Sequence record: PZ534511.1 | Direction: 5' to 3' (one strand) | From: a phage | Length of the DNA stretch: 64,000 bases | Shown: positions 24,275 to 39,035 of the stretch, in pieces | Numbering within the stretch: the stretch's first letter is position 1 | Layout: each line of letters begins with the position of its first letter | Program-made: the position numbers and the translations under genes | The notes under the pieces: model-generated | Seen by the model: only the letters and a program-made list of their open reading frames with translations | Databases searched by the model: none | What the model was told of the DNA's origin: nothing

Positions 24275-24290
24275 CCTTTCGGGCAGGGCC
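24260..24290 (-). terminator. rho-independent terminator (minus strand)
   Basis: Minus-strand hairpin GCCCTGCCCGAAAGGGTGGGGC followed by TTTTTGC. Confidence 0.5.
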
Positions 24291-24295
24291 TAGTG

Positions 24296-24778
24296 TTAAA
24301 CCCGGATACCTATTGTATACTCGGTGGATACCAATGTCAAATCTAAATTTAAAATTTCTTGCATCTCATAGTATGCGTCCAGGGTGAGATACATTTCCCC
24401 ATCCTTTTCTACATACTTGTCCAAGTGCTTGAGGCATTTCGGATAACTATCGAGTGCAGCTTTCAGACACTCAAATTCTGTGCTGTTGATGAATCCTTCC
24501 ATCTTGGCTACCCGTTCTGGAGTAACGATAGCACTGTAGTGAGATTTAGCTTCCTGGATGCAATGGGTCCAAGCATCAACTTTCTCTTCGAAAAGTCCGA
24601 AGAACTTCTTTTTAGTGAGCTTCAGATTCTTTAAGTGCTTAAGCACTCGGTTGCCGATCACAGCCACATCACGAAACTTAAGGATCACTTTGTCGATATC
24701 CTCGCGGCCTATTTTCACAAAGCAAGCCTCACACATTTCAGGAGCTGCGTAACCTACTTTCCACATAAAATCTGACAT
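24296..24778 (-). CDS. hypothetical protein
   Basis: Track ORF 160 aa; RBS AATAAGGAGATAG. Confidence 0.5.
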   Translation of the reverse strand: MSDFMWKVGYAAPEMCEACFVKIGREDIDKVILKFRDVAVIGNRVLKHLKNLKLTKKKFFGLFEEKVDAWTHCIQEAKSHYSAIVTPERVAKMEGFINSTEFECLKAALDSYPKCLKHLDKYVEKDGEMYLTLDAYYEMQEILNLDLTLVSTEYTIGIRV

Positions 24779-24790
24779 AACACTATCTCC

Positions 24791-25189
24791 TTATTCTTCC
24801 TGAAAAGCTATGATATCATATGAACTTGCAGATGATCCTGGTGAAGAATGACTCCAATCCAGGTCATCAGAGTAGTCAGCGTACTGTGCACCGCTACGTA
24901 GTTTGTATTTTACCCACTTACCTGGTGCAGGGTTTTCACCACCTTCCCATACTTCCCAGCCTTCTGGCAGGCCGTCCTGAGCATAGTCATCCACCTCACT
25001 AATGATCTTAGGGTTTGGCACCAAGATCCCCGCAGGCTCTTCCTTCCGGATAAGTGTCCACACAGCGTAGGTATCTGAGCAGGCGCATGATAGCAAAGTA
25101 TATCCACTATTCAGAACTTCTGCAAGCTCTTTTTCAGCATCTTCCAATTTAGTTAAGTGGTATTGGATAATCTTCACACCTGTAATCAT
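24791..25189 (-). CDS. hypothetical protein
   Basis: Track ORF 132 aa. Confidence 0.5.
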   Translation of the reverse strand: MITGVKIIQYHLTKLEDAEKELAEVLNSGYTLLSCACSDTYAVWTLIRKEEPAGILVPNPKIISEVDDYAQDGLPEGWEVWEGGENPAPGKWVKYKLRSGAQYADYSDDLDWSHSSPGSSASSYDIIAFQEE

Positions 25190-25533
25190 CAGAAACCTCC
25201 CACTTCTTCAGCAAATGCAGCTGCTGTCGTCGCTGCATCCAGATAGGACTCTAGTTCACGGGCTGCACGTTTGTAAATTGAGTGTCGCAAATCGTTTGGC
25301 AGTTGGTGGAAGTCCACCTCTTCACCGTTGTGGTAAACATGCACATCGGTAATTTGTCTAAATCCGTAATAGTCAACATCAGAATCACGGCACTCCGGGT
25401 CTGGCAACTGGACAACTGCCTGAGCTTCTACAGTAAACATATCGTCAAGTTCGAAATCGATTTCAAAAGTGTATGGTTTATAACGTTTCATCATTTGATT
25501 GTACTCTTTATTGATCAGACATATCTTTCGCAA
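25189..25533 (-). CDS. hypothetical protein
   Basis: Track ORF 114 aa. Confidence 0.45.
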   Translation of the reverse strand: MRKICLINKEYNQMMKRYKPYTFEIDFELDDMFTVEAQAVVQLPDPECRDSDVDYYGFRQITDVHVYHNGEEVDFHQLPNDLRHSIYKRAARELESYLDAATTAAAFAEEVGGF

Positions 25534-26833
25534 TTAAGGCCGGGGTAAGTTTGTAATAACGGAAGCCACCACCACCTTGCCAGTTTACAGACTTAGAAAT
25601 ACCACCTTGATCTTCGCCATCGATCACTTTTTCCAAGCGCGGAATAATATGGGTATGACAATGATCACCCAGTTCGATCAAGATCCAACGTCTTTTCATT
25701 TTGTGAGCTACAGCAGCAGTAGTTCCCGAACCACCGAATGAATCCAATACCAAATCGCCTTCTCGCGTACACATCTCGAAAATCCGCTTCAAAAGCGCTT
25801 CTGGTTTTTTACCATTTTTGAAACTAACGCCACCTTCATTTGCTATTCCATTCCAACTAATATCTGTCCAAACATCAGTTATTAGTTCCGCAGGCTGCAT
25901 CTCACCGTCAATTTCCAAAAGCCTGTTGGAGTAAAAGACCATTTGCCTACCATTTGCGATATAAAATCCTTCAACATCCTCATTTGGATGTACATAAACC
26001 TTATCCCTGTCTTTCTTTGACTTCTCGATAGTTTCTTTTCTCTTTATTTTAGCACCACCACCAATTGCAACAGATTGAAATACACGTTCTGCATTATCAA
26101 TTGCGAATTGTGCTAATTCATCATCGAATGTGTCAGGCAGTTTTTTCTTGGCTTCTTTTGCATCTTTATAGCCATTGGCCTTTGCAAACGCATCGGCAAT
26201 ACCACACCACGTCCAATTTTTATAATGGTCATCCGGGTTTAATAGGTATTTGTTATATCCTGTATCATACCCTTTAGGTATATAGATTTTGTTAAGCGGT
26301 TTCTGGTTGCGATCTTTTGCATATACAAGCAAAAAGTTTGCTGTGGAGAAAACTGTGGCTCCTGTTGCCTTAAATCCTGAAGGGGAATTTGTGGTCATCG
26401 AGATGGTATTTAACTGATTTGCACGACCAAAAATCTCGTCCATCAAAACTTTTAAATACGCCATTTCGCAACCATCTAAGTGAACGAATATTACCCCATC
26501 ATCACTCAGAAGATTACGAATTATTTCTAACCTATCCCTCATTAAGCCCAGCCAAATGGAATGCTCCAGGCTATCATCGTAGTGCTCAAAAGCCCTCCCG
26601 GTATTGAATGGTGGGTCTATGTAAACACACTTCACTTTGCATGCATACTCTTGCTCTAGCGCCTTCAATGCTAATAAGTTATCTCCAAAAATCAGTTTAT
26701 TATCAAAAATATCGTTTTCGGTCACCTTCTGGCTGTGGTAAGATTTGCTAGAATCTTCTAACAAAATGTGCGGCTCTAACTTTTTGCGCTCGTTTTTACC
26801 TATCCAGGTAAGTTCTAATTTGGTTTTACTCAT
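25508..26833 (-). CDS. DNA N6-adenine/N4-cytosine methyltransferase (beta-class amino-methyltransferase)
   Basis: Catalytic motif IV VYIDPPFNTG followed C-terminally by the AdoMet motif LVLDSFGGSGTT (beta-class order). Confidence 0.7.
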   Translation of the reverse strand: MSKTKLELTWIGKNERKKLEPHILLEDSSKSYHSQKVTENDIFDNKLIFGDNLLALKALEQEYACKVKCVYIDPPFNTGRAFEHYDDSLEHSIWLGLMRDRLEIIRNLLSDDGVIFVHLDGCEMAYLKVLMDEIFGRANQLNTISMTTNSPSGFKATGATVFSTANFLLVYAKDRNQKPLNKIYIPKGYDTGYNKYLLNPDDHYKNWTWCGIADAFAKANGYKDAKEAKKKLPDTFDDELAQFAIDNAERVFQSVAIGGGAKIKRKETIEKSKKDRDKVYVHPNEDVEGFYIANGRQMVFYSNRLLEIDGEMQPAELITDVWTDISWNGIANEGGVSFKNGKKPEALLKRIFEMCTREGDLVLDSFGGSGTTAAVAHKMKRRWILIELGDHCHTHIIPRLEKVIDGEDQGGISKSVNWQGGGGFRYYKLTPALIAKDMSDQ

Positions 26834-26894
26834 CGTTTGGTGCTCTCCTTAGTTTTTGTGGGGAGGAGTGCCTCCCCTTTATACTCACACCTTA

Positions 26895-27236
26895 CTACTC
26901 AAGGTCTTCAGAGTCAAGCTCAAAAAGAATCAAACTGTGCATGCCTGCAGAGAGATTAACACACCCTGCAACAATAAGGGTTTGATAGTAAGGTCCAGCA
27001 CCCTCAATGTCTTCGTTAAAATCTACAACAAGGTAGTCACCTTTGTTAAAGGTGTATTTGTCCGATGTAAACGCAAAACCTGCCCAGTCTCCTACTGCAG
27101 GATCTTTATCAGTCACCTTTGTTAGCAGTAGATCTTTTTCACGAGATCTTTTAGTAAAATCGTGAATCACAACATTCTTCTCTTCAGGAGTCGGATTGCC
27201 ACACACGTAGTTAACGATATTTCTCCACAAACTCAT
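26895..27236 (-). CDS. hypothetical protein
   Basis: Track ORF 113 aa; start overlaps the stop of the helicase gene. Confidence 0.45.
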   Translation of the reverse strand: MSLWRNIVNYVCGNPTPEEKNVVIHDFTKRSREKDLLLTKVTDKDPAVGDWAGFAFTSDKYTFNKGDYLVVDFNEDIEGAGPYYQTLIVAGCVNLSAGMHSLILFELDSEDLE

Positions 27237-28603
27237 ACGTCCCCCTCTTCTGCTCTGGTTTCAAAATCTTTCCTGACAATTTTGTCTAAGTCAGGGAATG
27301 TTGTATTGTAAAACTCTACGACTCGCGGGTCAACAATAATGTCAACTTCTCTTAGTGGACGCAACAAGTTTATTCCTTGTATTGTCTTAACCCGACTCAA
27401 AGCAACATACGTCATCCCAGGAGAGAAAGCTCCGTTCTTTCCAAGGTCCAGGTTGTAACAATCTAGCGTAAGTCCTTGACTTTTATGAGATGTTACGGCG
27501 TACCCAGATTTCAGAGGAAGTTGCTTGTATGACCCAATCACTACCCTCTCTATAAACTTCTCCATCTTCCTTTCTGCAATGTTGTATCTCTGAGAGGGCT
27601 TATACTCGTTATTCTCCCACAACCTCTGCTCTATGTCAACCTGTGTTCCATCTTCAAGCTCTACCACCACCGCCTTGTTCTTAAATTTAACAATTGTGGC
27701 ACGTGTTCCGTTAACATAATAAGGTACCTTGTGCGTCGGGTCAACATCGTTGGCGGTTATCATAACTTTCATGCCAATTTTCAACTTCATCTCCTGCTCA
27801 ACTGGCAGGGTGGAGGGAAACTTACCCTTCATTTCACCAGTGTATACCTTCTCTGGGGCGTTGATGGCATCATAGAACCTTCTGTTCACTTCCTCTGCTT
27901 GTTTGTTGGTGGCGCAAATTGTGAGAGCGTCTGTTGGTACACCGCCTTTGTAACAGCGAGCATTAAGTTCTGCTACAACCTCTTTTATGCGACGACCCTC
28001 ACGAACACAGTTGAGCATTGTGGCAAATCGAATAGACTCCTGTCGGAACTGATCTACTAAGGCTATGTTGTGGAGGTCAAGCTCTTTCCAAGATTCGGTA
28101 TAGCAACACAGGTCCGTATGGTAGAAGTTGAAGTAGGCTTCCTTCTCCATAGAAGAGACAACAGGAGGTGCCTGGTAAAAATCGCCAAACAATATGACCT
28201 GTATGCCTCCGAAAGGTTTGTCATTTTTTCGAAGGAAGCGGAGTTTCCTATCCATCTCTATAAACTTATCAGCACGGATCATAGAGATTTCATCGATAAT
28301 CAGGATGGTAAATGCCTTGCTTTTCAAAGGCTTTGCTGTTTTTGCCCTTATTGCGGTCCAGTCTGACTCCATGCTCACACCTGCTGCAAGATCGAAGGTT
28401 CGGTGTGCTGTTGCTCCATTAACGTTTAAAGCGGCTACCCCTGTCGGGGCAACCGTTATGCAAGAGTCTCCATACATTGACTGGATCATGTTGATGAGAT
28501 ACGTCTTCCCACAACCTGCAGGTCCTGAAACGAAGACATTCTCACCACTCATGATTGCAACGAGGGCAGCATCTGTGCCTACATCATACTGCCCTTTTTC
28601 CAT
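27233..28603 (-). CDS. Dda/PIF1/RecD-like superfamily 1 DNA helicase
   Basis: Walker A GPAGCGKTY near the N-terminus; Walker B-like IIDEISM; size and position typical of phage Dda-like helicases. Confidence 0.7.
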   Translation of the reverse strand: MEKGQYDVGTDAALVAIMSGENVFVSGPAGCGKTYLINMIQSMYGDSCITVAPTGVAALNVNGATAHRTFDLAAGVSMESDWTAIRAKTAKPLKSKAFTILIIDEISMIRADKFIEMDRKLRFLRKNDKPFGGIQVILFGDFYQAPPVVSSMEKEAYFNFYHTDLCCYTESWKELDLHNIALVDQFRQESIRFATMLNCVREGRRIKEVVAELNARCYKGGVPTDALTICATNKQAEEVNRRFYDAINAPEKVYTGEMKGKFPSTLPVEQEMKLKIGMKVMITANDVDPTHKVPYYVNGTRATIVKFKNKAVVVELEDGTQVDIEQRLWENNEYKPSQRYNIAERKMEKFIERVVIGSYKQLPLKSGYAVTSHKSQGLTLDCYNLDLGKNGAFSPGMTYVALSRVKTIQGINLLRPLREVDIIVDPRVVEFYNTTFPDLDKIVRKDFETRAEEGDV

Positions 28604-29808
28604 TACGCCTCCTCGTAAAGAATGTCGATAGTGTTACCGTCACGATCAACTACATATTCAATAGGGTCTCCATCTTTGCGTGCTTCCGGAGCTACCACAA
28701 TCTCATAGCGGCATGCACGGCACTTAGCGCTATTGTGTTGGTATGGCACACTAACCACATCTGCAGGGTCAACCATAACAGTCATTACAGTGCCGTAGCT
28801 CTTTGCATACTCTTTGCTGGCGCAGTGTAAGCCATAAGAGCACGCAGCTTCCGGATCATCCTCTACAAAGTTACGAGGCATGGATACAAAAGCCCCCTGG
28901 TATTGTGGAACTTTACCACTGTGCCAATCCACCCACTTGCTGCCGTTAAACTGAACCCCTTTGTAGCAAATGATTCGACCATCTTCTGCAATCTGGATAT
29001 CGTTGGCCTGCATAAAATCGTAGAGCATGTTTACAGATTTTGCAGAAGGATTGCGCAGCAGGCGAACGAGGAATTTCACATAGCGGTCATCCAGTGTTCC
29101 GTCTGCATAATCTTTCTCAATTTTCTTTGCAATGGTGGATCGCATCTCTACACCGTAGTAGTAGAGCTTACCATCTTTCATGACCAGGTTGTCTGCAAGT
29201 GTGGTGAACTCATTCTTGCGTTCCAGCCAGACAAGGATTTCACCAATTGCCTCATCATATTCCTGAACAGAGATATGGTCGAAGACTTTCTGGTAAACTT
29301 CCTCACTTTCGCTGCGGCGAATTTCAAAAATGCCTTCGTTGCAGGTGATCTGGAGGAGTTCCCCACAAATAACTACCAAAGGCTCAATACTTCGAGTCTG
29401 TTGCTGAGATACGCTGCTCACCACCTCCAGCACCGGATCTTTGACTTCTACTAAAGGTTCTTCTGACTTGATTGCTACCCCAGTGAACCCCACACCATGA
29501 ACAACACACAGTGGGTATACCACGCCCCAACGTTTAACGGACCCTTCGCCTAAATCTAAGATCATGGCGTACTTACCGTTATCTTCCAGACCGTATCGAA
29601 ATAAACGGGCCTCTTCGCGGGTTTCAAAATCCTCACGGGTGTAGCAGACGCTGTCACGGTCAGGATCGAACAACTCTGGGGCACCAACTGCCAGTGTCCA
29701 GGTTGTGTCGCCTTTCTCAATGGCACATGTGAAACCCTTCTTCTCAAGTTCTGCACGGCGGTCTCGTGCTTCTTTACGGGTTTTGAAATGTTCGTAGATG
29801 AAAATCAT
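28603..29808 (-). CDS. hypothetical protein (possible rIIB-like partner of the adjacent GHKL ATPase)
   Basis: Track ORF 401 aa immediately downstream of the rIIA-like gene; assignment by synteny only. Confidence 0.35.
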   Translation of the reverse strand: MIFIYEHFKTRKEARDRRAELEKKGFTCAIEKGDTTWTLAVGAPELFDPDRDSVCYTREDFETREEARLFRYGLEDNGKYAMILDLGEGSVKRWGVVYPLCVVHGVGFTGVAIKSEEPLVEVKDPVLEVVSSVSQQQTRSIEPLVVICGELLQITCNEGIFEIRRSESEEVYQKVFDHISVQEYDEAIGEILVWLERKNEFTTLADNLVMKDGKLYYYGVEMRSTIAKKIEKDYADGTLDDRYVKFLVRLLRNPSAKSVNMLYDFMQANDIQIAEDGRIICYKGVQFNGSKWVDWHSGKVPQYQGAFVSMPRNFVEDDPEAACSYGLHCASKEYAKSYGTVMTVMVDPADVVSVPYQHNSAKCRACRYEIVVAPEARKDGDPIEYVVDRDGNTIDILYEEA

Positions 29809-29818: not shown

Positions 29819-31801
29819 TTATTTGATGTTATTCTTTGTATCGATCAGTTCACGGTATTCAATCATAGCAGGAGTGTCCCAATATTTCAAGCCTACATGC
29901 TTCAAAAGTGGGTATTTCTTTTCCAATCTTGCAATATAGGCCTTCCCGCATTTAACTCGGTTGGCGATTAAGATTTTGGCACGATGATTTAGCTCACTGT
30001 GCTTCCACGCGGTGTTACCTTCCCACTTGTGGAAATGTGGCCGATAATTTCCAAAATCTTGCATGGGAATAATTTTCCCTAATTGTCTATACAGGCTGTC
30101 ATATGAAGTTTCATTTGCTGCGCGAGTCAGTAAGAATTTCCAAGCATCCTCTTTCAACAAATGTTCCACATTTTTCTCTGTAACATACTGGCAATCAGGA
30201 TCAGTCCAAAGCAGACGGGATTCTGATACCAGGTACAGGTCTTCCCCTTCAGGAATCTGGAGTGCCGCACGCACACGGTCATAATTTTGCTGGTAGATGT
30301 TACTCAGCTGTCCCAGCCAACAACTTCCACGTTGGATATCACCTTCATAAGGAATGCAGTGCTTAATCTTCTTGAACTCTGCCTTAGTAATACGTTCACG
30401 ACGGAAGTAACCATCCTTCTCAAGCTTTTTAACCCAATAACCTGGCTCGTAATGAGTTTTTGTTTCACCTTTCTTCGCAGGTCGGCGAGGGAGCTCTGAT
30501 AACAATTTGACAGTATCTGCAAAGAACGGATGGTGTGCCGCCTCTTTAAACTCTTTCACTAGATCCGTATTCCGGCAATAGAAAACGTTGCGTCCGGTGA
30601 TTTCGCTTAAATAGTTACACTTATTTCGGTTATATTTGCCATCTCCGTCGTTAAATACAAGGTATACACCTCGTAAGAACTCCGACTTTCCGTAACGAGC
30701 ATAGCCTATGCGGCCTTTATTTAAGCCTCCAGCGAAAATTTCACAATCGCCTAAGTCGCCAAGCCCTGTTTCTTCCCATCTGTCCCACATAAAATTCTTA
30801 CCGAAGATGTGCCCGAACACTCCACTGTTCTTCATCATCTCACGTGCTTCTGAGGATGTTTTTGCTGTCTCCAATTCCGCAACAACTTCTGCCCCACGAA
30901 GACGGATACCCTCTTTGACAAAAGCCTCCAGACGCTCTTGGAATCCACCATCGTCGTGCCCCTCTATGGTCCATTCGCGCCCAGGGTTAATATTGCAATC
31001 CCCGATAGGGATCTCTACACAGATTGCAGGGTAGTCTGTCAATGTTTCCAGAAACTTAGAGCGGTAAGGTTGGTGTCCCATCACCACACGGCTCTCATCA
31101 GAGCTGGTATAACCTTTCAGGATGGTCATTTTCCAACCATCCTTCTCGTAGTGATACTGCGCCTCAACCTTATCACCTTCCAGCATCTTACTGGTCATAG
31201 GGTCGGTAACGGTAAACGGAAACTTTGCATAGCGTAGGCATGACGCAATAGCAGTGCGATATTTCAGGACATGCTCTTTCTTAACATGGAACTGAACTTT
31301 TACCCCGTTGTGCTCTTCAGTCTTCCGCTCACGGATCTTGGTAACGTTTGGGATACCCTGATCCAAGAACAATAGATATGTGCTTTCAACACCATTGTGC
31401 ACACTGATAACATCGAAAGTGTCCACCATACTGAACGGAGCCTTTGAACCAACACCTTTATTACCTACCAGAGCGTTGCTGTTGCGCTTGGTTGACTCCC
31501 CGAGATTCATGAAAGTGTTGCGGACCATCTCTTCTGACATGCCCAATCCAACGTCCTGCACAAAGAAGTATGGTTCAAGGTCTGTAGGAGAGTGAATAAT
31601 GATCGGTACATCACCCCGTCCAGACTCAACATGGGAGTCCACGGCATTGAAGATTGGTTCACGGCAGCTTGCCAGCACCTTATCTTCGTAAATCCCTTTA
31701 ATGATTAGCCCAAAAGTCTCTTTGTTCAGAGAAATTGAGCCCCTGGTGACCTCCATATTCCCGGTTAGTACCGCTTTAGTTTCATTACTGTTTACAATCA
31801 T
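29819..31801 (-). CDS. GHKL/HATPase_c-domain protein, rIIA-like
   Basis: Bergerat-fold motifs NAVDSH (N box), QDVGLGMS (G1), GNKGVGSKAPF (G2) in the N-terminal third; 660 aa. Confidence 0.5.
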   Translation of the reverse strand: MIVNSNETKAVLTGNMEVTRGSISLNKETFGLIIKGIYEDKVLASCREPIFNAVDSHVESGRGDVPIIIHSPTDLEPYFFVQDVGLGMSEEMVRNTFMNLGESTKRNSNALVGNKGVGSKAPFSMVDTFDVISVHNGVESTYLLFLDQGIPNVTKIRERKTEEHNGVKVQFHVKKEHVLKYRTAIASCLRYAKFPFTVTDPMTSKMLEGDKVEAQYHYEKDGWKMTILKGYTSSDESRVVMGHQPYRSKFLETLTDYPAICVEIPIGDCNINPGREWTIEGHDDGGFQERLEAFVKEGIRLRGAEVVAELETAKTSSEAREMMKNSGVFGHIFGKNFMWDRWEETGLGDLGDCEIFAGGLNKGRIGYARYGKSEFLRGVYLVFNDGDGKYNRNKCNYLSEITGRNVFYCRNTDLVKEFKEAAHHPFFADTVKLLSELPRRPAKKGETKTHYEPGYWVKKLEKDGYFRRERITKAEFKKIKHCIPYEGDIQRGSCWLGQLSNIYQQNYDRVRAALQIPEGEDLYLVSESRLLWTDPDCQYVTEKNVEHLLKEDAWKFLLTRAANETSYDSLYRQLGKIIPMQDFGNYRPHFHKWEGNTAWKHSELNHRAKILIANRVKCGKAYIARLEKKYPLLKHVGLKYWDTPAMIEYRELIDTKNNIK

Positions 31802-32298
31802 TTATTGCGCTCCTTGTAGTAGATATGGCTCCCGAATTGAGCTGTCCTCTGCATCTTTTTTGCCCATTTCGGTCGTACTTTGGTTGTATGGTAGTGTGTT
31901 GCTCCACCTGTTATGTCCATAGCCATGTATGCAACATGGTTGTTATTATAGACCTTTAGAAGCATCTTTGCAAGACTTTTAGCGTGATCCCATGAATCTT
32001 TTTCTGTCACCTTAAAAGTTTTGCCGTGGTTTGTCCACGAAAACTGGTTAGGTTGGTAGACAATCTTTCTTATAGTGTCTGGGTATTTAGGGTGGGATTT
32101 CCTGTTTAGTGTGGCAAACCCAGATGCCAGCATACCCATCGTGCCATCTCCTCTAGCTTCCCTGTAGATATTGCATGCCAGAATGTTTTCCTTAGTATCT
32201 GATGGCTTGCAAGTATGATATACTTTTTGTTTTGGTGCTGCAACAACAGGCAGCGATAAAAGTGCGCTCAAAATAATAGCAAAGATCTTAATTTTCAC
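31798..32298 (-). CDS. SleB/CwlJ-family cell wall hydrolase with N-terminal signal peptide (candidate secreted endolysin)
   Basis: Signal-like N-terminus MKIKIFAIILSALLSLPVVAAP; motif NIYREARGDG..LNR typical of the SleB hydrolase family. Confidence 0.55.
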   Translation of the reverse strand: MKIKIFAIILSALLSLPVVAAPKQKVYHTCKPSDTKENILACNIYREARGDGTMGMLASGFATLNRKSHPKYPDTIRKIVYQPNQFSWTNHGKTFKVTEKDSWDHAKSLAKMLLKVYNNNHVAYMAMDITGGATHYHTTKVRPKWAKKMQRTAQFGSHIYYKERNK

Positions 32299-32330
32299 AA
32301 TGACTCCAAATAGAAAATCCCCGCCGAAGC
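32295..32330 (-). terminator. rho-independent terminator (minus strand)
   Basis: Minus-strand hairpin CCCCGCTTCGGCGGGG followed by ATTTTCTATTT. Confidence 0.55.
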
Positions 32331-32347
32331 GGGGGAGGTCTTAGAAA

Positions 32348-32776
32348 TTAATCGTAGTGTGCCAAAATCTCTCCATCGTTGCAAGTTCCCTCTACAAAGT
32401 TATGAAGATTCATGCACTCATCTTGATAGAAGAATTTACCGCTTTTCAGCCGTAGGCCAAACAACTCCGCATCTCCACGATGGCAAGCCTCTACAAGTTC
32501 ATAGATTTCATACGGCAACTCTCCGTCGTCATGGAAGAATCCAGCCTTATCGTTGACATAAATGAAGAAATAATCACTGCTATCGCAAGCGTCCAATATT
32601 TTAAACCAGACTTCATCTACATCTTTTTCTCGGATATCGATCACGCAAGTGGAGCTGCATTCGTACTCCTTCTCCGGCTCCTCGGTCAATACCACCAGGT
32701 AGTTTCCCCGCTTACCTACTTTAGCCATACAACCCCCCTTAAGCTTTAGCCAAAATGGCGCTAAACTCTTCACCAA
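32348..32776 (-). CDS. hypothetical protein
   Basis: Track ORF 142 aa. Confidence 0.45.
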   Translation of the reverse strand: MVKSLAPFWLKLKGGCMAKVGKRGNYLVVLTEEPEKEYECSSTCVIDIREKDVDEVWFKILDACDSSDYFFIYVNDKAGFFHDDGELPYEIYELVEACHRGDAELFGLRLKSGKFFYQDECMNLHNFVEGTCNDGEILAHYD

Positions 32777-33923
32777 ACTCTTTTACAATCTTCATCAGGT
32801 TTGGGTATGCTTTGATCAGCTGAGCAACAATCTTGTCACGCCCTTTACCGATAAGCAAGGCATTTCCTAAGGCATTAGGTTTCATCATCGCCATAAAGAC
32901 TGAGAATACAAAATCTCGGTTCTCGTCCTTGAAGTTTTCCCAAAGGAAATCGAGGAAGTTTGCCACGCAGCTGACAAGATCTTCGTCTGAGATACTTGCA
33001 TTTTCCATCATATTGCGAATAGCGATACAACCTTCAGATCCAAGAATCCACAAAATGTCTGGCTGCTTAGGACCTACGTATTCTTTGCAGCCACCTGCCA
33101 TAATCCGACCGATTTCCGGTAAATTACGTTTCTTGGTGTGGTAAGTCCAGATCTCTACCGCTGCAGTGTGACCAATAGCACCTTGTAGAAGAACACGGGC
33201 CATAGCGTCAGAAATAATACCGCTGTCAAAATCGTGCAAGATGTCAGATGCAGCAACCCAAGATCGTGGTGTGGCAAAAGATGGACAATTAATCTCAGCC
33301 ATAGCCTCATAATTATCAATAGCTGATGGAACTCTTTTCAGATACCCAATTACAGAGGAGTGAACCCCGTTGAGGAATGCGTAGTCCTCAATAAACACCT
33401 CTGCATTGCTTGTAACCTCTACAATGATAAAACGGTTAGCCAGAGGGGCTTCGAGCGCCGAAAGAACCGCACCATCTGTAGAACGGTTACCCGCAGCCAC
33501 AAAAACAGAACCTTTAGGGAATGCATAGGTGCCGCACTTGTGGTCAAGCATAATTTGCATTGCAACCTTTTGCAGGTAGTTATCTGCATGAGTGAGCTCA
33601 TCCAGAAAGATAATTCCGCTCCAGTCAGGATCCGCAGGCCAAAATTCTGGAATTGCAAACACTGTACGTGTAGTTCCATCCGCTTCTACAGGGATAGGTA
33701 GCCCAGATAAGTCGGCAGGATCTTTATCTGACAGTCGCACGTCAACAAGGTTGTCATCTCGCTCACCGAACATATTATCAGCGATCTGCTTCATCACCTG
33801 GCTTTTACCCACACCCATTGGTCCCAAAATTAGGACAGATCGGCTATGACGTTGGGCAAACTGAATAATAGCTGGCAACTCACGGACAGTGATTTGACCA
33901 CTTTCGAATACGTTTCTTGACAT
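32739..33923 (-). CDS. MoxR-like AAA+ ATPase
   Basis: Walker A ILGPMGVGKSQ; Walker B IIFLDELTHAD; size about 390 aa. Confidence 0.65.
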   Translation of the reverse strand: MSRNVFESGQITVRELPAIIQFAQRHSRSVLILGPMGVGKSQVMKQIADNMFGERDDNLVDVRLSDKDPADLSGLPIPVEADGTTRTVFAIPEFWPADPDWSGIIFLDELTHADNYLQKVAMQIMLDHKCGTYAFPKGSVFVAAGNRSTDGAVLSALEAPLANRFIIVEVTSNAEVFIEDYAFLNGVHSSVIGYLKRVPSAIDNYEAMAEINCPSFATPRSWVAASDILHDFDSGIISDAMARVLLQGAIGHTAAVEIWTYHTKKRNLPEIGRIMAGGCKEYVGPKQPDILWILGSEGCIAIRNMMENASISDEDLVSCVANFLDFLWENFKDENRDFVFSVFMAMMKPNALGNALLIGKGRDKIVAQLIKAYPNLMKIVKEFGEEFSAILAKA

Positions 33924-34192
33924 TAGTAAAAGTCCTCTACTTGTGTGTAAGTGTTTTCAAAGTTTTCCAAAACAGATATCACATCGAATCTGTCAATATC
34001 ATACGTGACTCTCCAGTTGTACGCAACCCTTTCTGCTGTTGCCTCTTCTGGCGCTAGTCGTCTGCTGGCATAAAAGAGTGTTGGAGTACACTTTCTTGCT
34101 TGCCCTCTAACTTTCCCATAATAATATCTGTGAATATCTTTGTCAAAATTTAACTCTTTTTCTGCACGAAGTTCATATTGCTGGTATAACAT
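33923..34192 (-). CDS. hypothetical protein
   Basis: Track ORF 89 aa. Confidence 0.4.
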   Translation of the reverse strand: MLYQQYELRAEKELNFDKDIHRYYYGKVRGQARKCTPTLFYASRRLAPEEATAERVAYNWRVTYDIDRFDVISVLENFENTYTQVEDFY

Positions 34193-34236
34193 CTCTACTA
34201 CTCCTTAAGCAGCATCCTTGCCGCCATTCCTGCCCA

Positions 34237-34617
34237 CTAAAATGCAGTCCGAATCCAGACAAGGTTCTTATCTGCCCAATCATAGAGGCAAGTCATTGCA
34301 CTATTGAATTGCTCACACGGAGGATAATCTTCTTCCATCTGGCGCATAGCAGAGCCTTGTGGGTAAAGCTCCCGTGCTGCAAACCACGCGTCGTAGTCAT
34401 CAACGGTGTCGAAGTAGTATACAACATCCTCTAACTCAGGATCGAACTTTGAACTATCAGGATCCAGTTGTTCAGGGAACTTGGAGCGTAACTTGCCAGC
34501 CACAATACTTGCCAACTCGCTAACATGCTTATTGTCCCACTCCACTAGCTTCCCGTCTTCAGTGATGCGTCCTAACCACTGATCATGAAGGTCAACTGTT
34601 GTCTTCCACTGAGCCAT
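34237..34617 (-). CDS. hypothetical protein
   Basis: Track ORF 126 aa. Confidence 0.45.
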   Translation of the reverse strand: MAQWKTTVDLHDQWLGRITEDGKLVEWDNKHVSELASIVAGKLRSKFPEQLDPDSSKFDPELEDVVYYFDTVDDYDAWFAARELYPQGSAMRQMEEDYPPCEQFNSAMTCLYDWADKNLVWIRTAF

Positions 34618-34619
34618 TA

Positions 34620-34877
34620 TCAGTCCACCTCTTCTTCTCGTTGTAGTTCAAGATACCCGTAGGTCTGGACATCTTGAAGGGTGTGGAACTCCCCCTCTGC
34701 CGCTAAGGCACGAACAACTTGGCACAAAACCTTATGAGGAACTTCATCCAAACCTAGATTCAGTGCAGGAAACACCTTATCTAAGTCAACAAAATAAACG
34801 AACTGTAGCTCACCAGCTTCAAAAGGTGTATCTTCAATAAACATCTTCTCGGCATTAGTCAAGATCTGCACTTTCAT
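34620..34877 (-). CDS. hypothetical protein
   Basis: Track ORF 85 aa. Confidence 0.4.
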   Translation of the reverse strand: MKVQILTNAEKMFIEDTPFEAGELQFVYFVDLDKVFPALNLGLDEVPHKVLCQVVRALAAEGEFHTLQDVQTYGYLELQREEEVD

Positions 34878-35254
34878 TATTCTACCTCCTCTTCTTTTTC
34901 TTCGGCATTAGTTTCATGGCTACCCCACTCGGGAGTTTCCACCTCGATAGTAAACTCACGCACTACACGGTAATTGCCCATGAAGCGCTCTACTTCGTCA
35001 AGGCTTATGGAGAGGCCATTGGCAACCAGGTCTGCAGCACCCTCTTCTACCAGGTAGTCCAGATTGGCTTCCAGAGCCTTAGGTTCAAACCCTGTCAATG
35101 CAATCAGATAACCTTCCCCTTCATCAGGGAGGACAATACAGCCCAATTGATTTTCTTTAAAAAGGCAGTGACCATCATTATTGATTGGGTGTTCATTGCA
35201 GTAAATAGCTGCACGATAAGTAACTTTAGACATCGGTAAGGTCTCCTTAGGCAA
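34877..35254 (-). CDS. hypothetical protein (probable start at MSKVTYRA, near 35233)
   Basis: Internal ATG preceded by AAGGAGACC RBS; its first codons lie within a 28 bp inverted repeat shared with 37072-37099. Confidence 0.45.
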   Translation of the reverse strand: MPKETLPMSKVTYRAAIYCNEHPINNDGHCLFKENQLGCIVLPDEGEGYLIALTGFEPKALEANLDYLVEEGAADLVANGLSISLDEVERFMGNYRVVREFTIEVETPEWGSHETNAEEKEEEVE

Positions 35255-35525
35255 TTGTCATTTTACATTCTTGAAATTTTAACACAAGACGGTGATTGTG
35301 TCTAGTGTCTAAAAAGATTTTTTCAACCATCAGGCACACGGTATAACCGTCCATCTTGTTGACAACAAAATCTCCAGGATGAGGGAGGATGTCTCCCGGA
35401 TTGGGGAAACATAGTCCACTCAGAAAGGCATCGTCAGTGGTGGACTTAATAGATTTCCACACACTGTCTGCCTGAACATGTTCACCGACGTAATATACAT
35501 TACCACATGCCTTCATCATAGTCAA
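35247..35525 (-). CDS. hypothetical protein
   Basis: Track ORF 92 aa. Confidence 0.4.
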   Translation of the reverse strand: MTMMKACGNVYYVGEHVQADSVWKSIKSTTDDAFLSGLCFPNPGDILPHPGDFVVNKMDGYTVCLMVEKIFLDTRHNHRLVLKFQECKMTIA

Positions 35526-36421
35526 ACCCTCGCATAAATTAAACTTGTATCAGTATACTTCTTTAATGGGTAAATATCCTGTCCATAGATGCAATCATTA
35601 AACACCTCATCTACCCAAAGGCTACACTTATATCCCATCATTTCTAAAACACCCATCTCTTCTTCGGTAAACTTATCACCGCTCTTGCAAGATGTCAATA
35701 CCTCATTCTGAACTCTTGCTACCTCGAAGCGGTTATTGGCAATATCGCTATTGGCGATCAAATACTCACCTAGAGGGTGTGCGGCATTAAAGATGCACAG
35801 CGGACGGCTGACGTAATAGTCTCCAGGTGTATAAAAATTGTTGAGGTCTTTCACTAGAACATTCTTATCAGTCACTTCATTTATAACATCATGCATATCG
35901 CACATCTTTATATGTTTGAGGATTCCATCCCCCATCACAAAATAAAAACTTGCTGAGACACTTTCGGCATAGATCTTACTAGATCCGTTGTAGTTGTATT
36001 TTACTCGGATGCTAACGGGGGTTTTTCCTGTCGCGTTAGCCATCATCCAAAGAAATGGCAGCTCATACTTCTCCTCTGAGGAAACAAAAGGTGAGGTAGC
36101 CAGAGATCGAAAACCTCCAGAGAAGTTGAAAGTTACAGAACCGCTCCGGCGGTATGATACCGCGTATTCTACTTTTATATCGACATACCCATTGGAATAG
36201 GTGTGTCCTTCATTATCTAAATATGTCCACTTATCAGACCCAGATACCAATCTACGCTCAATAACCTTCATCACTATAGGAATTAATGGGTTGGTACAAA
36301 CCGCTTTTGAAGTAGCTTTATCATCTAAAGCCTCGTAAATTGCAGAAAGGATGTCCCCAGCTGAAAGATTGGTTGTTATGTCCTGTTTCCACCGCGTACT
36401 AAAACTGTTAAGATTTGCCAT
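35522..36421 (-). CDS. hypothetical protein
   Basis: Track ORF 299 aa; RBS TAGGAGCAC; promoter TTGACT-17-TATAGT at 36452-36480. Confidence 0.5.
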   Translation of the reverse strand: MANLNSFSTRWKQDITTNLSAGDILSAIYEALDDKATSKAVCTNPLIPIVMKVIERRLVSGSDKWTYLDNEGHTYSNGYVDIKVEYAVSYRRSGSVTFNFSGGFRSLATSPFVSSEEKYELPFLWMMANATGKTPVSIRVKYNYNGSSKIYAESVSASFYFVMGDGILKHIKMCDMHDVINEVTDKNVLVKDLNNFYTPGDYYVSRPLCIFNAAHPLGEYLIANSDIANNRFEVARVQNEVLTSCKSGDKFTEEEMGVLEMMGYKCSLWVDEVFNDCIYGQDIYPLKKYTDTSLIYARV

Positions 36422-36451
36422 AAGTAAGTGCTCCTATGTTAGTTTTCTTTC

Positions 36452-36480
36452 GAATGGGTGCACTATATTGTGGAGTTAGA
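36452..36480 (-). promoter_or_regulatory. sigma70-like promoter (TTGACT-17-TATAGT), divergent partner of the 36504 promoter
   Basis: Read on the minus strand upstream of the 35522..36421 gene. Confidence 0.5.
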
Positions 36481-36497
36481 GTAAAGTCAACACGTTT

Positions 36498-37541
36498 TTG
36501 ATGTTGACATCTGTTGAGACAATTGATACGATTTCTTCACTTACAGAGCACGAGAGACGACTCATGAATCTTGAAAAATATTATACACCAGAAGAGTTAG
36601 AGCGCTTGCTCAAAAAATATAGACGCAAACAGAATAACGCACGGAAACGAGATATAGAGTTCGACCTGTCATGGGAAGAATACCTCCTATTTGGTAAAAA
36701 ACTTTTAGGAGATGGAGTATGCGACTATACCCTTATACCTTTTGACATGCACACAGATGAAAACGGGCTGGGGAATCCTTTCTACCCATCTCTGGAGCGG
36801 ATAGATGATGAAGGTCCTTATGCGGCTGATAACTGTTGTGTGGTGGGATTGAGATGCAACTCTCTAAAGGACTGTCTGGTAGATAAAAAGACTGCAGTCT
36901 TGATTAAAGACGAAACTGATCGAAAAATTGTCCAGCAGATGATGCTCCACCTGAGCGAAGAGCGTATGGAGAAATTGAAAGGTGATTATACTTTTGAAGA
37001 TTTCATCTTGCAATATGGAACGGAAGAGGATAAACTAGCACTCTTTGACGAAGAAGAGGAGGAAGATATGCTACCGATGTCTAAAGTTACTTATCGTGCA
37101 CCCAAGAAGCACATTTCCGACATTGTAAACGAGCCTATCACAGAAGAGATTGAAGAAATGACGCAACAGGTGCATGAAGAGGAAAAAGAGACTCAGGAGG
37201 TCGAAGAGGAGCTTACAGAAGAGGTTCCTGCACTACCTGATGATGTTGAGATTGCCAAAGCTTACACTTTCTATTGTCAAACGTTCTACGATGTAGGTAT
37301 GAAAGTTGATCTGTCATTCAGCCAATTTAAGAGTTCGTATATTCGCAAATGCTGTGCTTTAACTGGTGAACGTCTTGGAGCTGGACTTAAACCCCTGTTG
37401 GTGACCGACTGGAATAAAGGTTTCACTAAAGGAAACTTTATGGTAGTATCTCCAATTATGGAGAAAGCTATGACAGATCTTATGAAGACCACCCGCATGA
37501 CAATGACCGAGTTGGCAGGTATTTTCAAACACGTTAAATAA
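36498..37541 (+). CDS. protein with two tandem degenerate HNH/endonuclease VII-like domains (probable true start about 36564, MNLEKYY...)
   Basis: Internal duplication (DLSWEEY..GVCDYT.. and DLSFSQF..CCALTG..); CxxC..N..CN..K-like remnants; track start is TTG inside the promoter; contains internal MSKVTYRA start-like repeat. Confidence 0.4.
   Translation: MMLTSVETIDTISSLTEHERRLMNLEKYYTPEELERLLKKYRRKQNNARKRDIEFDLSWEEYLLFGKKLLGDGVCDYTLIPFDMHTDENGLGNPFYPSLERIDDEGPYAADNCCVVGLRCNSLKDCLVDKKTAVLIKDETDRKIVQQMMLHLSEERMEKLKGDYTFEDFILQYGTEEDKLALFDEEEEEDMLPMSKVTYRAPKKHISDIVNEPITEEIEEMTQQVHEEEKETQEVEEELTEEVPALPDDVEIAKAYTFYCQTFYDVGMKVDLSFSQFKSSYIRKCCALTGERLGAGLKPLLVTDWNKGFTKGNFMVVSPIMEKAMTDLMKTTRMTMTELAGIFKHVK
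36504..36532 (+). promoter_or_regulatory. sigma70-like promoter (TTGACA-17-TACGAT) driving the plus-strand island
   Basis: Hexamers read directly; overlaps the first codons of the over-extended track ORF. Confidence 0.5.
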
Positions 37542-37553
37542 TGACAGGGGCCA

Positions 37554-39035
37554 ATGGCCCCTTCTGGAGTTTTAATGGATAGCAGAAGTTCAGAAATCAT
37601 TGCCTCGCAGAAAGATGATGCCCTGAGAATGTTGCAGGCTGCACGTATGTATCTCCTTGAAAAGCTGCCGTTTTATGGCACACTACTGTCAGGGTTGCAG
37701 TTCGTAGAAAACCACACATGGTGCTCCACCATGGCAACCGACCATAAACGCATCTACTACAGCCCTGAGTTCATTATGGGGTTGGCGGATGAGCGTAAAA
37801 CCATTCTTAAAGCATCTCTGACTGACAAGCAGTTTGAGATGGCTGAGGTTTTCTATTCCCCAAAATCTGTGAAAGAGGTGGCCTTTCTTCTGTCACATGA
37901 GGTGGGGCATATTATCTGTGATCATCTGGTCCGTGGTAAAAGCTTTGAGCCGGAACTGTTCAATATTGCTTGTGATCACGTTATCAACACAGGTCTTGTG
38001 GTTGACTTTAGCAAGCCTCCTTGTGTTTTCTTCCCGAAGGGGAAAAGCACTGAGTTCGTAAAAGGTAAGCCTTTTGGCTTCTTAGCTAATTGCTACTGCG
38101 ACATGAGGTTTCATGGATGGATTGCTGAGAACGTCTATGCAGTTCTTGATAAACAAAGAGATCAGAATGGCGGTAAAAGTAAGAACGGTAAAGGTGAGAA
38201 CTCCCAAGGAGATAAACGACAAACCGATGATCACATGAGCGGGAACGGTGGCACTAGTGATGATCTTGGAAAGGCTATGGGGTATGATCAGCCGCAACCA
38301 GTAATCAGTCAATCTGACAAAGATCAGGCCATGCAGGACTCTGGTGACATGTTGGAAGCAGCAATGCAAGCTTCAGGAGGTCGTTGCCCCGAGGCGGTGC
38401 GCGAGTTTGTCAAAAACAGAGGCAAGCCTGTAATCAATTATATAGATATTATTAAGCAACGTATGTTATCTAAAAGAAAGGCTGAGTTAACCTACAGAAA
38501 ACCTGGTCGCCGATCTGGGTCTTTGACCACCACAATGCGAAAAGTTGGAGCTATAAACAAGAATCAACACGTTATTGTTCCTGGTCGTAATCCGGAAAAC
38601 ACTATAGATATTGTAGTGGCTTTAGACGTTTCTGGGTCGATCTCACAAAGAACTTTAAAGAAAATGTTCAATGAGATCACCGGGTTGTGCAATTTGTATA
38701 AAGAGTTTAAGGTTACTATGTTCTGTTGGTCAACGGAGGTTGGAGAGGTTAAAGTATACACTCGCGGTAACATCGATGAGATGATTAACTATGAGGTCCA
38801 CTCAACATGGGGCACAACAGCCGCCTGCGTGTTCGAGTATCTGGATGCTAACATACCGAATGCAAAAGATGTCATCGTCCTTACCGACCTCTACTTTGAG
38901 CATAACTTTGAACAAAAGGCTGTTGACAACAAGTGGAAAAAGTACGATACTTTATGGGTTCTCACCGAAGGGTATAATAAAAATTATATCCCGAGCTTTG
39001 GGAAAACTGTGGAATTAATCGAGTACGCTAAGTAA
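37554..39035 (+). CDS. VWA-domain protein with N-terminal HExxH metallopeptidase-like motif
   Basis: HEVGHIICDH motif near residue 115; MIDAS motif VALDVSGSIS in the C-terminal half. Confidence 0.6.
   Translation: MAPSGVLMDSRSSEIIASQKDDALRMLQAARMYLLEKLPFYGTLLSGLQFVENHTWCSTMATDHKRIYYSPEFIMGLADERKTILKASLTDKQFEMAEVFYSPKSVKEVAFLLSHEVGHIICDHLVRGKSFEPELFNIACDHVINTGLVVDFSKPPCVFFPKGKSTEFVKGKPFGFLANCYCDMRFHGWIAENVYAVLDKQRDQNGGKSKNGKGENSQGDKRQTDDHMSGNGGTSDDLGKAMGYDQPQPVISQSDKDQAMQDSGDMLEAAMQASGGRCPEAVREFVKNRGKPVINYIDIIKQRMLSKRKAELTYRKPGRRSGSLTTTMRKVGAINKNQHVIVPGRNPENTIDIVVALDVSGSISQRTLKKMFNEITGLCNLYKEFKVTMFCWSTEVGEVKVYTRGNIDEMINYEVHSTWGTTAACVFEYLDANIPNAKDVIVLTDLYFEHNFEQKAVDNKWKKYDTLWVLTEGYNKNYIPSFGKTVELIEYAK

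Follow-up and report, generated by a model that had tools for sequence, protein, structure and literature searches.

The cell wall hydrolase Cwh of Aeromonas phage ASG01 consists of a signal peptide of about 20–23 aa followed by one Hydrolase_2 domain, in which the Glu is conserved; it is sufficient on its own for the lysis of E. coli, and export through Sec has been proposed for it (PMC10975977). Mutation of conserved residues of Cwh, including the equivalent Glu, reduced or abolished lysis, and mutation of the first Cys of its Cys pair abolished it (PMC10975977). In the Vequintavirinae, gp83 of Pectobacterium phage CB7 and gp087 of Cronobacter phage CR3, both of the genus Certrevirus, are orthologous SleB-like hydrolases for which a signal peptide is predicted; such hydrolases are conserved across the subfamily and reported to be toxic on expression, CB7 gp83 having been described as 'toxic' (PMC7344957). 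Bacillus SleB, too, is synthesised with a signal peptide that is cleaved off, and the catalytic role of its Glu has been stated (PMC12331253). The annotated endolysin of Pseudomonas phage PaP1 is a homologue, and T5-like phages carry a SleB-like gene apart from their cassette of holin and M15 endolysin. Lys44 of Oenococcus phage fOg44, whose activity is said to have been shown to depend on membrane depolarisation, has an unrelated catalytic domain and acts on a Gram-positive host. What it has in common with the protein studied here is a proposed holin-independent Sec route that uses a true signal peptide (cited in PMC10975977).

In this study, we examined a SleB-like gene in a window of 64 kb, that is, the whole stretch of phage DNA that was analysed (record PZ534511.1). 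The source genome is that of a Vequintavirus, an rV5-like myophage with E. coli as host. The gene and its translation signals are as follows.

31798–32298, minus strand: coding sequence of the hydrolase, ortholog of rV5 gp002; 166 aa, GTG start, TGA stop
32304–32307, minus strand: Shine–Dalgarno sequence GGAG, 5 nt 5′ of the hydrolase GTG, read from the sequence
31798–31801, minus strand: ATGA overlap of the hydrolase TGA with the rIIA ATG, from coordinates and sequence

At exactly these coordinates, a sequence-only reading had placed an open reading frame for a SleB-family hydrolase with a cleavable-looking signal peptide; it had taken this to be the only recognisable muralytic enzyme of the window and the likely endolysin, had noted that no canonical holin is adjacent, and had suggested export either through Sec or by signal-arrest-release (SAR). 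The minus-strand frame of 166 aa is confirmed. Its product is 98.8% identical to rV5 gp002 (NC_011041; YP_002003504, 'cell wall hydrolase' or 'endolysin'), and the Vequintavirus orthologs, rV5 gp002 among them, are of equal length and 98.8–99.4% identical over all 166 aa. As nothing substantive distinguishes rV5 gp002 from the hydrolase, the two are one gene, and in rV5-type genomes the orthologs likewise lie directly upstream of rIIA and overlap it. The ATGA overlap suggests that translation of the hydrolase is coupled to that of rIIA. Gene, domain and signal peptide were already annotated or published for rV5-type phages, so the observation itself adds little; signal peptides on homologues, holin-free lysis by the related Aeromonas phage enzyme (PMC10975977) and the idea of "two endolysins" are also in print. 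Our literature search found no functional study, knockout or knockdown of rV5 gp002 or of its Vequintavirus orthologs.

The assignment of the protein to the Hydrolase_2 family with a SleB fold is far above chance. The two features that define the domain are given below.

31816–32148, minus strand: Hydrolase_2 domain, Pfam match, residues 51–161
32158–32160, minus strand: codon of Glu47 in the motif Y-R-E-A-R-G-D, aligned to the Glu of SleB YGESRGE (4f55)

Pfam PF07486 (Hydrolase_2) was matched over model positions 2–100 of 100 with an E value of 2.1e-19 and 70.4 bits (cutoff 27), and PHROG 938 'endolysin' with an E value of 1.6e-27. The SleB catalytic domains in PDB entries 4f55 and 4fet were found both by sequence search (E 2e-6) and by Foldseek with the AlphaFold2 model (mean pLDDT 88.4), where the probability was 1.0 and the TM score 0.72–0.79 on the target; Foldseek returned no significant match besides these two. 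Thus, the family named in the sequence-only reading stands. In the model the structural domain begins near residue 28. Hydrolase_2 is the sole Pfam match, and about 15 residues separate the signal peptide from the domain. Homologues were collected by an exhaustive search of representatives, which gave 11,355 matches, of which the best 150 were used; a word-indexed search returned 10 proteins. In the set built from these best 150, Glu is present at position 47 in all 159 aligned homologues, and Arg66 and His158 are invariant across 161. Glu47 is thus presumed to be the catalytic acid.

SleB proper was considered as an identity for the protein and rejected: the match to the SleB equivalog NCBIfam TIGR02869 scored 48.3 bits (cutoff 236.5) and covered only model positions 82–201, and there is no N-terminal peptidoglycan-binding domain. 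The fold of the catalytic domain, the catalytic Glu and a signal peptide (whose cleavage is predicted here) are common to both proteins; Bacillus SleB differs in having the peptidoglycan-binding domain and the spore cortex as substrate. Because the E. coli wall is not a spore cortex, substrate recognition must differ from that of SleB.

One feature might suggest that the protein is catalytically dead, or a vestige, and has been retained for binding. The Cys pair usual in the family (alignment columns 39 and 77), which is present in 112–113 of 161 homologues in the set from the best 150 of 11,355, is missing from the hydrolase, where I39 and R77 take its place. ASG01 Cwh, whose domain architecture is the same, has the usual pair as C34 and C72, and it is the first of these whose mutation abolished lysis. 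Against such a loss of function, the hydrolase keeps Glu47, Arg66, the QFSW motif, Trp145 and His158, and an alternative pair, C30 and C42, is common to the whole Vequintavirinae clade. The Certrevirus POP15 ortholog, about 49% identical, shares the C30/C42-type pair, and CB7 gp83, the protein found to be toxic, belongs to the same subfamily. Sequence conservation within the genus (95–99%) also argues against decay. Given these data, a dead protein is extremely improbable.

The N-terminus of the protein has the appearance of a classical export signal.

32239–32298, minus strand: predicted Sec signal peptide MKIKIFAIILSALLSLPVVA, codons 1–20, from hydropathy, the −3/−1 rule, pLDDT and homologues

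It begins with MKIK (charge +2), continues with the hydrophobic core IFAIILSALLSLPVV of 15 residues and ends in V-V-A|A-P. The call is rule-based and draws in addition on conservation in the family and on SignalP results in the literature for homologous proteins. A rule-based reading found what characterises Sec-type signals, namely a positive n-region, a hydrophobic core (7–15 residues in such signals) and small side chains at positions −3 and −1. V-x-A at −3/−1 fits the signal peptidase I rule, and a helix-breaking Pro stands at −4. Cleavage is predicted between A20 and A21, so that the mature protein would have 146 aa, a mass of about 16.9 kDa and a pI of about 10 (16.8 kDa and 9.95 were computed for residues 22–166); a cut one residue later is ruled out because of Pro22. 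Residues 1–20 of the AlphaFold2 model have a pLDDT of 52–55 and are not packed against the domain. In the homologue set from the best 150 of 11,355 matches, 141 of 161 proteins have an N-terminal signal or a lipobox, and P0002, which is 81% identical to the hydrolase, has another signal sequence of equal character, so the signal is conserved in kind and not in sequence. A lipoprotein signal was rejected for the hydrolase, as residues 1–29 contain no Cys, C30 is preceded by Y-H-T and there is no lipobox. Lipobox-like signals do occur in some of the homologues.

SAR domains, such as those of P1 Lyz and phage 21 R, are transmembrane segments of about 20 residues, longer than the core found here; they are weakly hydrophobic, contain much Gly, Ala and Ser, lack a peptidase site and stay uncleaved. 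In a SAR endolysin, the uncleaved N-terminal segment would tether an inactive enzyme to the inner membrane until depolarisation. The hydrolase resembles these enzymes in being muralytic, in coming from a phage of a Gram-negative host and in having an N-terminal hydrophobic segment that would engage Sec; its catalytic family is a different one. Its core has 15–16 residues, a mean Kyte–Doolittle value of 2.6, no Gly and a Gly+Ala+Ser+Thr content of 31%, compared with a hydropathy of about 2.0, four Gly and 55–65% Gly+Ala+Ser+Thr that we take to be the values for the R21 and P1 Lyz SAR domains. The Pro at −4 and V-x-A at −3/−1 make up an ordinary signal peptidase I site, and the signal has no Cys for disulfide caging. 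Where a signal peptide is predicted on the lysin of a Gram-negative phage, it is often interpreted as SAR (PMC8223927), and the downstream ORF with two transmembrane domains that is found in sister genera (see below) could be a pinholin. Nevertheless, the short, strongly hydrophobic, Gly-free core with its peptidase site makes a SAR endolysin very unlikely. Of the two export routes suggested earlier, the one by a Sec-type, cleavable-looking signal therefore holds, as judged by these rules, and the SAR route is disfavoured.

The position of the gene bears on when and how strongly it may be expressed. The features that surround it are these.

32309–32334, minus strand: hairpin resembling an intrinsic terminator, CCCCGC-TTCG-GCGGGG followed by ATTTTCTATT; 'terminator' in the annotation of HdK5, EdH4 and Gotham
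29819–31801, minus strand: rIIA, 660 aa, the downstream neighbour, not a lysis effector (PHROG 612, E 1e-124)
28603–29808, minus strand: rIIB, 401 aa, context (PHROG 609, E 9e-62)
34118–34146, minus strand: sigma-70-type promoter-like site TTGACA-N17-TATTAT (rV5 'P4'); 11 of 12 consensus positions match, and a promoter is annotated in NC_011041
36462–36532, divergent, no single strand: promoter-like region between a fucosyltransferase gene (minus) and a Srd-like gene (plus), from a motif scan

The hairpin sits between the upstream homologue of rV5 gp003 and the hydrolase, with no space left over for a promoter. Going upstream, the first promoter candidate for the unit of the hydrolase, a consensus match only, is the site at 34118–34146, and the region at 36462–36532 heads the leftward unit 'genes 10-1-238-164'. 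Sigma-70-like sites were as frequent as in shuffled sequence (15 observed, 15.2 expected), and single sites were counted only where the rV5 annotation agrees with them. No copy of the late-promoter-like motif was found upstream of the hydrolase within the leftward unit. Taking the gene layout and motif scans together with the unit proposed previously (PMC3606486), we infer that the hydrolase belongs to a leftward early/replication unit; no transcript-timing data for a Vequintavirus were found in the literature. In papers on PAK_P3 and PAK_P4, a putative endolysin lies in the late region; its link to a Hydrolase_2 homologue is putative and was kept out of the argument.

Adjacency to rIIA and rIIB was rejected as evidence on lysis. 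EdH4, an rV5-like phage, can do without RIIA and RIIB where Rex is absent but requires them against lambda RexAB (PMC11879866), and because the rII genes of EdH4 are an anti-Rex counter-defence, their proximity is no proof of a lysis role. The company of counter-defence genes, a presumed place in an early/replication unit and a design that points to low expression (terminator and GTG start) might instead indicate a periplasmic factor that remodels the wall early in infection and has no part in lysis, acting on shape or division, in wall processing after entry or against competitors, be they phage or host. A complete canonical lysis set elsewhere in the genome (see below) would agree with this. 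Against it, we found no precedent for such a role among phage Hydrolase_2 proteins, expressed homologues cause lysis or are toxic (PMC10975977, PMC7344957), and the gene has a holin-like partner in sister genera. On balance we consider a pure remodelling function unlikely.

The surroundings of the gene were searched for other lysis genes. Pfam scans of 14 tail and baseplate proteins in the window revealed no lytic domain, and phage nimi, which is 98% identical, has no further lysin annotated across the span of the 64-kb window; the hydrolase is thus the only muralytic gene of the window, by Pfam for these 14 proteins and by the nimi annotation elsewhere. A hydropathy scan of 94 ORFs found no transmembrane ORF of at least 50 aa within 8797–26895 or 32298–52139. 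The SleB-like gene of a PVP-SE1-like (Seunavirus-type) Salmonella phage is followed immediately by a holin-like ORF with two transmembrane domains, and in Certrevirus a holin-like ORF of 62–65 aa, also with two transmembrane domains, lies directly 3′ of it; tblastn of the window with the ORF of the PVP-SE1-like phage gave only noise. Neither the scan nor tblastn thus revealed a neighbouring transmembrane ORF, in agreement with the sequence-only reading. The placement in a lysis cassette that is seen in sister genera is therefore absent here, where no holin or spanin adjoins the gene. Certrevirus differs further in lacking rIIA and rIIB, whereas here rIIA directly follows the hydrolase.

The canonical lysis genes of the relatives lie elsewhere. 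In nimi, the lambda-R-type lysin is nimi_3 (E 3e-49 against PDB 1AM7), and in rV5-type genomes the catalytic Glu20 of this lysin is intact. The corresponding rV5 gene product, gp89, was called 'an obvious lysin' by the authors of the rV5 genome, whose discussion of lysis does not include gp002 (PMC3606486), and LysECP26, which is 98% identical to gp89, has been purified and is active (PMC9728275). Gene 89 of rV5 is about 69 kb away from gene 2. The rV5-type genomes also encode a putative holin, gp129, and a pair of i- and o-spanins adjoining the terminase, and in the relatives the lambda-R-type lysin, gp129 and the spanins all map outside the window, which covers 64 kb of a genome of about 137 kb. 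ASG01, a 53-kb phage, differs in that no second lysin is annotated in it.

Because rV5-type phages encode a tested lambda-type lysozyme elsewhere, the hydrolase is probably not the main lysis enzyme of the phage. The designation 'likely endolysin' is thus not sustained, as the canonical lysin, holin and spanins lie outside the window and the gene appears to sit in an early unit behind a terminator. A primary endolysin that is exported by Sec and acts in the absence of a canonical holin, or together with a distant holin or pinholin, the lambda-type lysin being redundant or acquired later, nevertheless has points in its favour. RefSeq labels rV5 gp002 'endolysin', as PHROG 938 does for its family and the annotation of PaP1 for its homologue; Cwh of ASG01 needs no partner to lyse E. 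coli; the holin-like ORF follows the gene in the PVP-SE1-like phage and in a Certrevirus; and the SleB-like gene is present in every genus of the Vequintavirinae, whereas the second hydrolase varies between genera, being swapped for unrelated enzymes (PMC7344957). The hydrolase is also the better conserved of the two within its genus (95–99% identity, against mostly 80–90% for the lambda-type lysin). Opposed to this are the demonstrated lytic activity and intact Glu20 of the lambda-R-type lysin, the judgement of the rV5 authors, the missing holin-like ORF, the early/replication unit with a terminator and no late motif upstream, and the T5-like phages, in which the SleB-like gene likewise stands apart from the lysis cassette. 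We therefore regard a primary endolysin as rather unlikely.

We lean, with modest confidence, towards a Sec-exported accessory enzyme, that is, a second, holin-independent muralytic enzyme that is not the sole or demonstrably the main endolysin. Such an enzyme would share the transcription of the early/replication unit, the upstream terminator and the GTG start probably holding its output down, and its translation would be coupled to that of rIIA. It would reach the periplasm through the host Sec system by means of a classical signal peptide cut by signal peptidase I, and the mature, basic protein of about 17 kDa would amount to a SleB/CwlJ-type catalytic domain alone, most likely a lytic transglycosylase that uses Glu47. 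The canonical lysis set, comprising gp89 (LysECP26-like), the putative holin gp129 and the spanins, would be encoded elsewhere in the genome. Weakening of the sacculus from the periplasmic side might then make lysis faster or sturdier once wall synthesis or membrane energisation fails. Counting against the accessory role are the wide and tight conservation of the gene and its holin-like partner in sister genera; in addition, a hydrolase made early and exported should endanger the infected cell unless it is restrained.

The conservation of the gene, its presence in all genera and the holin-like ORF of sister genera fit a further reading, in which the hydrolase is the ancestral and still the primary lysis enzyme of the Vequintavirinae, periplasmic from early or middle infection and harmless as long as the membrane is energised. 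We think this quite unlikely. If it were true, RIIA and RIIB, coupled to the hydrolase and directed against Rex depolarisation in EdH4, might also guard against premature triggering of a pre-positioned hydrolase, and its original trigger would be the holin-like ORF of sister genera with its two transmembrane domains, which rV5-type phages would have lost or moved elsewhere.

A presumably Sec-exported SleB-like hydrolase accompanies a canonical cytoplasmic endolysin in many large virulent phages that infect Gram-negative hosts (rV5-like phages, T5-like phages and their relatives). A division of labour between the exported and the cytoplasmic enzyme would matter for models of lysis timing and for the choice of the phage enzyme to be developed as an antibacterial. 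For the near-identical phage EdH4, Cas13a editing (PMC9712115) and CRISPRi-ART (PMC11879866) are already in existence.

The gene that the sequence-only reading had singled out as encoding a SleB-family cell wall hydrolase has the following features:
31798..32298, minus strand: hydrolase coding sequence from the ORF call, 166 aa, GTG start
5 nt upstream of the GTG, minus strand: Shine-Dalgarno sequence GGAG, read from the sequence

The product matches PF07486 (Hydrolase_2; Pfam, E 2.1e-19, 70.4 bits against a cutoff of 27), PHROG 938 ('endolysin') and, in sequence, the PDB SleB catalytic domains 4f55 and 4fet. These two domains were also the sole significant Foldseek neighbours (probability 1.0) of an AlphaFold2 model made from 11 sequences, which had a mean pLDDT of 88.4 and low confidence in residues 1–20 only. 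Glu47 (motif Y-R-E-A-R-G-D) pairs in the alignment with the Glu of SleB YGESRGE and is Glu in 159 of the 159 homologues aligned there, and Arg66, the QFSW motif, Trp145 and His158 are likewise conserved; that the protein is a dead enzyme seems barely credible. The ORF, the Pfam and PHROG matches, the SleB sequence and fold matches and the conserved residues therefore confirm the family assignment, and a single-domain enzyme of the SleB/CwlJ catalytic type is well supported, its chemistry being most likely that of a lytic transglycosylase. It is not a SleB equivalog, because it scores 48 bits on that model against a cutoff of 236.5 and the peptidoglycan-binding domain of SleB is missing.

Over the 7 kb around the gene, identity to more than 100 rV5-like (Vequintavirus) myophages of E. 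coli is 98–98.7%, and in alignment the window spans approximately 37.8–101.8 kb of the 137 kb of phage nimi. The rV5 ortholog, gp002 (98.8% identity), is labelled 'endolysin' in RefSeq and 'cell wall hydrolase' (PF07486, 166 aa, pI 10.0) in the rV5 gene table (PMC3606486). Homologues were found by tblastn in 1,335 phage records, among them Seunavirus, Certrevirus, phi92-like, T5-like, Pakpunavirus and many other phages, and Hydrolase_2 is among the dominant catalytic domains in lysins of Gram-negative phages (PMC8223927). Between 16 and 23 'Campylobacter phage' records (host C. jejuni) share 98% identity with E. coli phages of the rV5-like or T5-like kind and are probably mislabelled or from contaminated isolates.

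The cleavable-looking signal peptide claimed earlier is upheld by sequence features. MKIK is followed by a strongly hydrophobic 15-residue core without Gly (IFAIILSALLSLPVV), a Pro at -4 and then V-V-A|A-P, an arrangement typical of signal peptidase I substrates; cleavage one residue later is excluded because of Pro22. A lipoprotein signal was rejected, no lipobox being found in the N-terminus. An N-terminal hydrophobic or lipobox-like signal occurs in 141 of 161 family sequences (the query, 10 word-index matches and 150 representatives, the best of 11,355 matches among 1.84 billion proteins), and an export signal is a trait of the whole family. Its sequence diverges while its character is kept, as in homologue P0002 (81% identical to the hydrolase), and Bacillus SleB is also synthesised with a cleaved signal peptide (PMC12331253). 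The signal is predicted to be cleaved by signal peptidase, and the view of the hydrolase as a Sec-exported enzyme, putatively processed in this way, is well supported. Export or release by signal-arrest-release (SAR), raised earlier beside Sec-dependent export, is very improbable: compared with what we take to be the phage 21 R and P1 Lyz SAR domains, the core is shorter and more hydrophobic (hydropathy 2.6 versus about 2.0), and Gly, Ala, Ser and Thr are far scarcer in it.

That the hydrolase is the sole recognisable muralytic enzyme in the window holds so far as scanned (Pfam scans of tail/baseplate proteins and relatives' annotation), for a window covering less than half of the phage genome. 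The absence of an adjacent canonical holin was also borne out, as the hydropathy scan of the window's ORFs found no strongly hydrophobic ORF near the gene. Elsewhere in the window, strong hydrophobic segments occur only in the distant ORFs 2111-2272, 2450-2854 (several segments), 4721-5137, 8468-8797 and 52139-52453, all on the minus strand. Two genes outside the window are relevant here:
nimi 1875-2363: 'lysin', 162 aa, in the annotation of nimi
L002 (phage nimi locus) 3108-3314: conserved 68-aa ORF, rV5 gene 90, PHROG 4641

The nimi lysin, whose coordinates fall well outside the window span, matches lambda lysozyme 1AM7 (E 3e-49) with the catalytic Glu20 present, and it is found at 80% identity or higher in about 90 phage records. 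The rV5 paper describes its equivalent there, gp89, as 'an obvious lysin'; for the holin it puts forward gp129, a 78-aa protein that has two transmembrane domains and ends in a basic C-terminus, and it leaves gp002 unmentioned under lysis (PMC3606486). In purified form, LysECP26, which comes from another rV5-like phage and shares 98% identity with the rV5 lysin, lysed every one of 29 Gram-negative strains (PMC9728275). An i-/o-spanin pair adjoins terminase in the relatives' annotation. Gene 90 directly follows the lambda-type lysin gene in rV5, with an HNH endonuclease gene intervening in nimi; its product carries at its N-terminus a single hydrophobic segment with Cys residues (…LFMAACLACGVVFAG…), differs from the holin proposed for rV5 and may be a lysis-linked signal, lipoprotein or membrane element.

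The biological role of the hydrolase is less certain than its molecular reading. Its earlier designation as the likely endolysin stands as regards an exported muralytic type, but is weakened by the gp89-type lysin, putative holin gp129 and spanins that rV5-type genomes encode. On balance, we lean towards a second, holin-independent muralytic enzyme that would assist the canonical set of lambda-type endolysin, holin and spanins. We consider it unlikely that the hydrolase is the primary endolysin, a view that keeps some ground because it is more conserved than the lambda-type lysin, the second hydrolase varies between genera, and a holin-like ORF is paired with its gene in sister genera. A PVP-SE1-like (Seunavirus-type) Salmonella phage has its hydrolase gene followed by a 57-aa ORF (L006 4452-4625; two hydrophobic segments, basic tail) and then by rIIA and rIIB. 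In Certrevirus POP15 the hydrolase gene overlaps a 62-aa ORF (L009 3423-3611; one strong and one weaker hydrophobic segment) with no rII genes after it. This arrangement is also reported in the CB7 paper, which presents the small ORF as a class II holin candidate, and notes a signal peptide and toxic expression for the hydrolase (PMC7344957). No such holin-like small ORF was found in the window, including after the hydrolase gene.

T5-like phages also have a SleB-like gene with a signal peptide, far from their holin-plus-M15 endolysin cassette. Cwh of Aeromonas phage ASG01, a Hydrolase_2 protein with a 23-aa signal peptide, needs no other phage gene to lyse E. coli; lysis is reduced or abolished by conserved-residue mutations, being abolished by mutation of the first Cys of the family pair (PMC10975977). 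This pair, at alignment columns 39 and 77, is present in most family members (112–113 of 161); in the hydrolase and its relatives within the Vequintavirinae, I39 and R77 take its place and the Cys pair is C30 and C42 instead, which suggests a relocated disulfide. Earlier publications already cover the gene, its family, the signal peptide of Vequintavirinae homologues, the 'two endolysins' and the lysis that a homologue brings about independently of a holin (PMC3606486, PMC7344957, PMC9769974, PMC12210895, PMC11180984, PMC10975977).

The transcriptional context involves the following elements:
31798-31801, minus strand: ATGA overlap of hydrolase stop and rIIA start, from the sequence
32309-32334, directly upstream of the hydrolase gene: GC-rich hairpin with UUCG loop and U-tract, an annotated terminator in three relatives
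34118-34146, upstream: rV5 'P4' promoter candidate
36462-36532, upstream: divergent promoter region
58410-58419 and 63921-63930, minus strand: exact copies of TGGTAAAATA, 30–40 nt upstream of structural genes
52079-52088, minus strand: exact or near-exact copy of TGGTAAAATA, from the motif scan

After rIIA, the same strand carries rIIB, helicase, methylases, primase/helicase and DNA polymerase. The hairpin leaves a promoter no space ahead of the Shine-Dalgarno sequence, and P4 and the divergent region are the nearest upstream candidates. The rV5 authors place genes 10-1-238-164 in a single transcription unit and regard genes 27-66 as late (PMC3606486). The late-promoter-like motif TGGTAAAATA of rV5 has 16 window sites at no more than one mismatch versus 6.2 expected, a count reached in 0 of 100 shuffles, and exact or near-exact copies lie about 27–42 nt upstream of baseplate/tail gene starts; the scan found no copy on the minus strand from the hydrolase gene to the head of its unit. 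From the terminator, the promoter candidates, the rV5 unit assignment and the missing late motif, we infer that the gene belongs to the early/replication module, and its expression is probably kept low by the upstream terminator together with the GTG start. We regard a non-lytic early role as quite unlikely. The adjacency of rIIA/rIIB was rejected as a sign of a lysis role, since knockdown of RIIA or RIIB in EdH4, a near-identical phage, has an effect only where the host expresses lambda RexAB (PMC11879866).

The neighbouring ORF 32348-32776 (minus strand), a T5.083 homologue in the rV5 gene table (PMC3606486), was called mechanically as 142 aa with a TTG start. Its true start is probably the ATG at 32728, because the PHROG 12370 match begins only at residue 17 and the annotation of relatives gives 126 aa; with this start, the ORF would no longer overlap the gene for the MoxR-like ATPase. 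RIIB (28603-29808), which lacks an export signal, has a weak, below-cutoff SPOR-domain match (E 0.0014) at residues ~8–90, and by eye its N-terminus holds two similar units, FKTRKEARDRRAELEKKGF... and FETREEARLFRYGLEDNGKY...; peptidoglycan is the ligand of SPOR domains. The 690-aa protein at 54117-56189 (minus strand), a tail fibre by relatives' annotation, matches the 'non-contractile tail sheath protein TIM barrel' PF23845 (E 4e-80), unexpected for a contractile-tailed phage, together with the N-terminal domain of that sheath protein and a Calx-beta domain.
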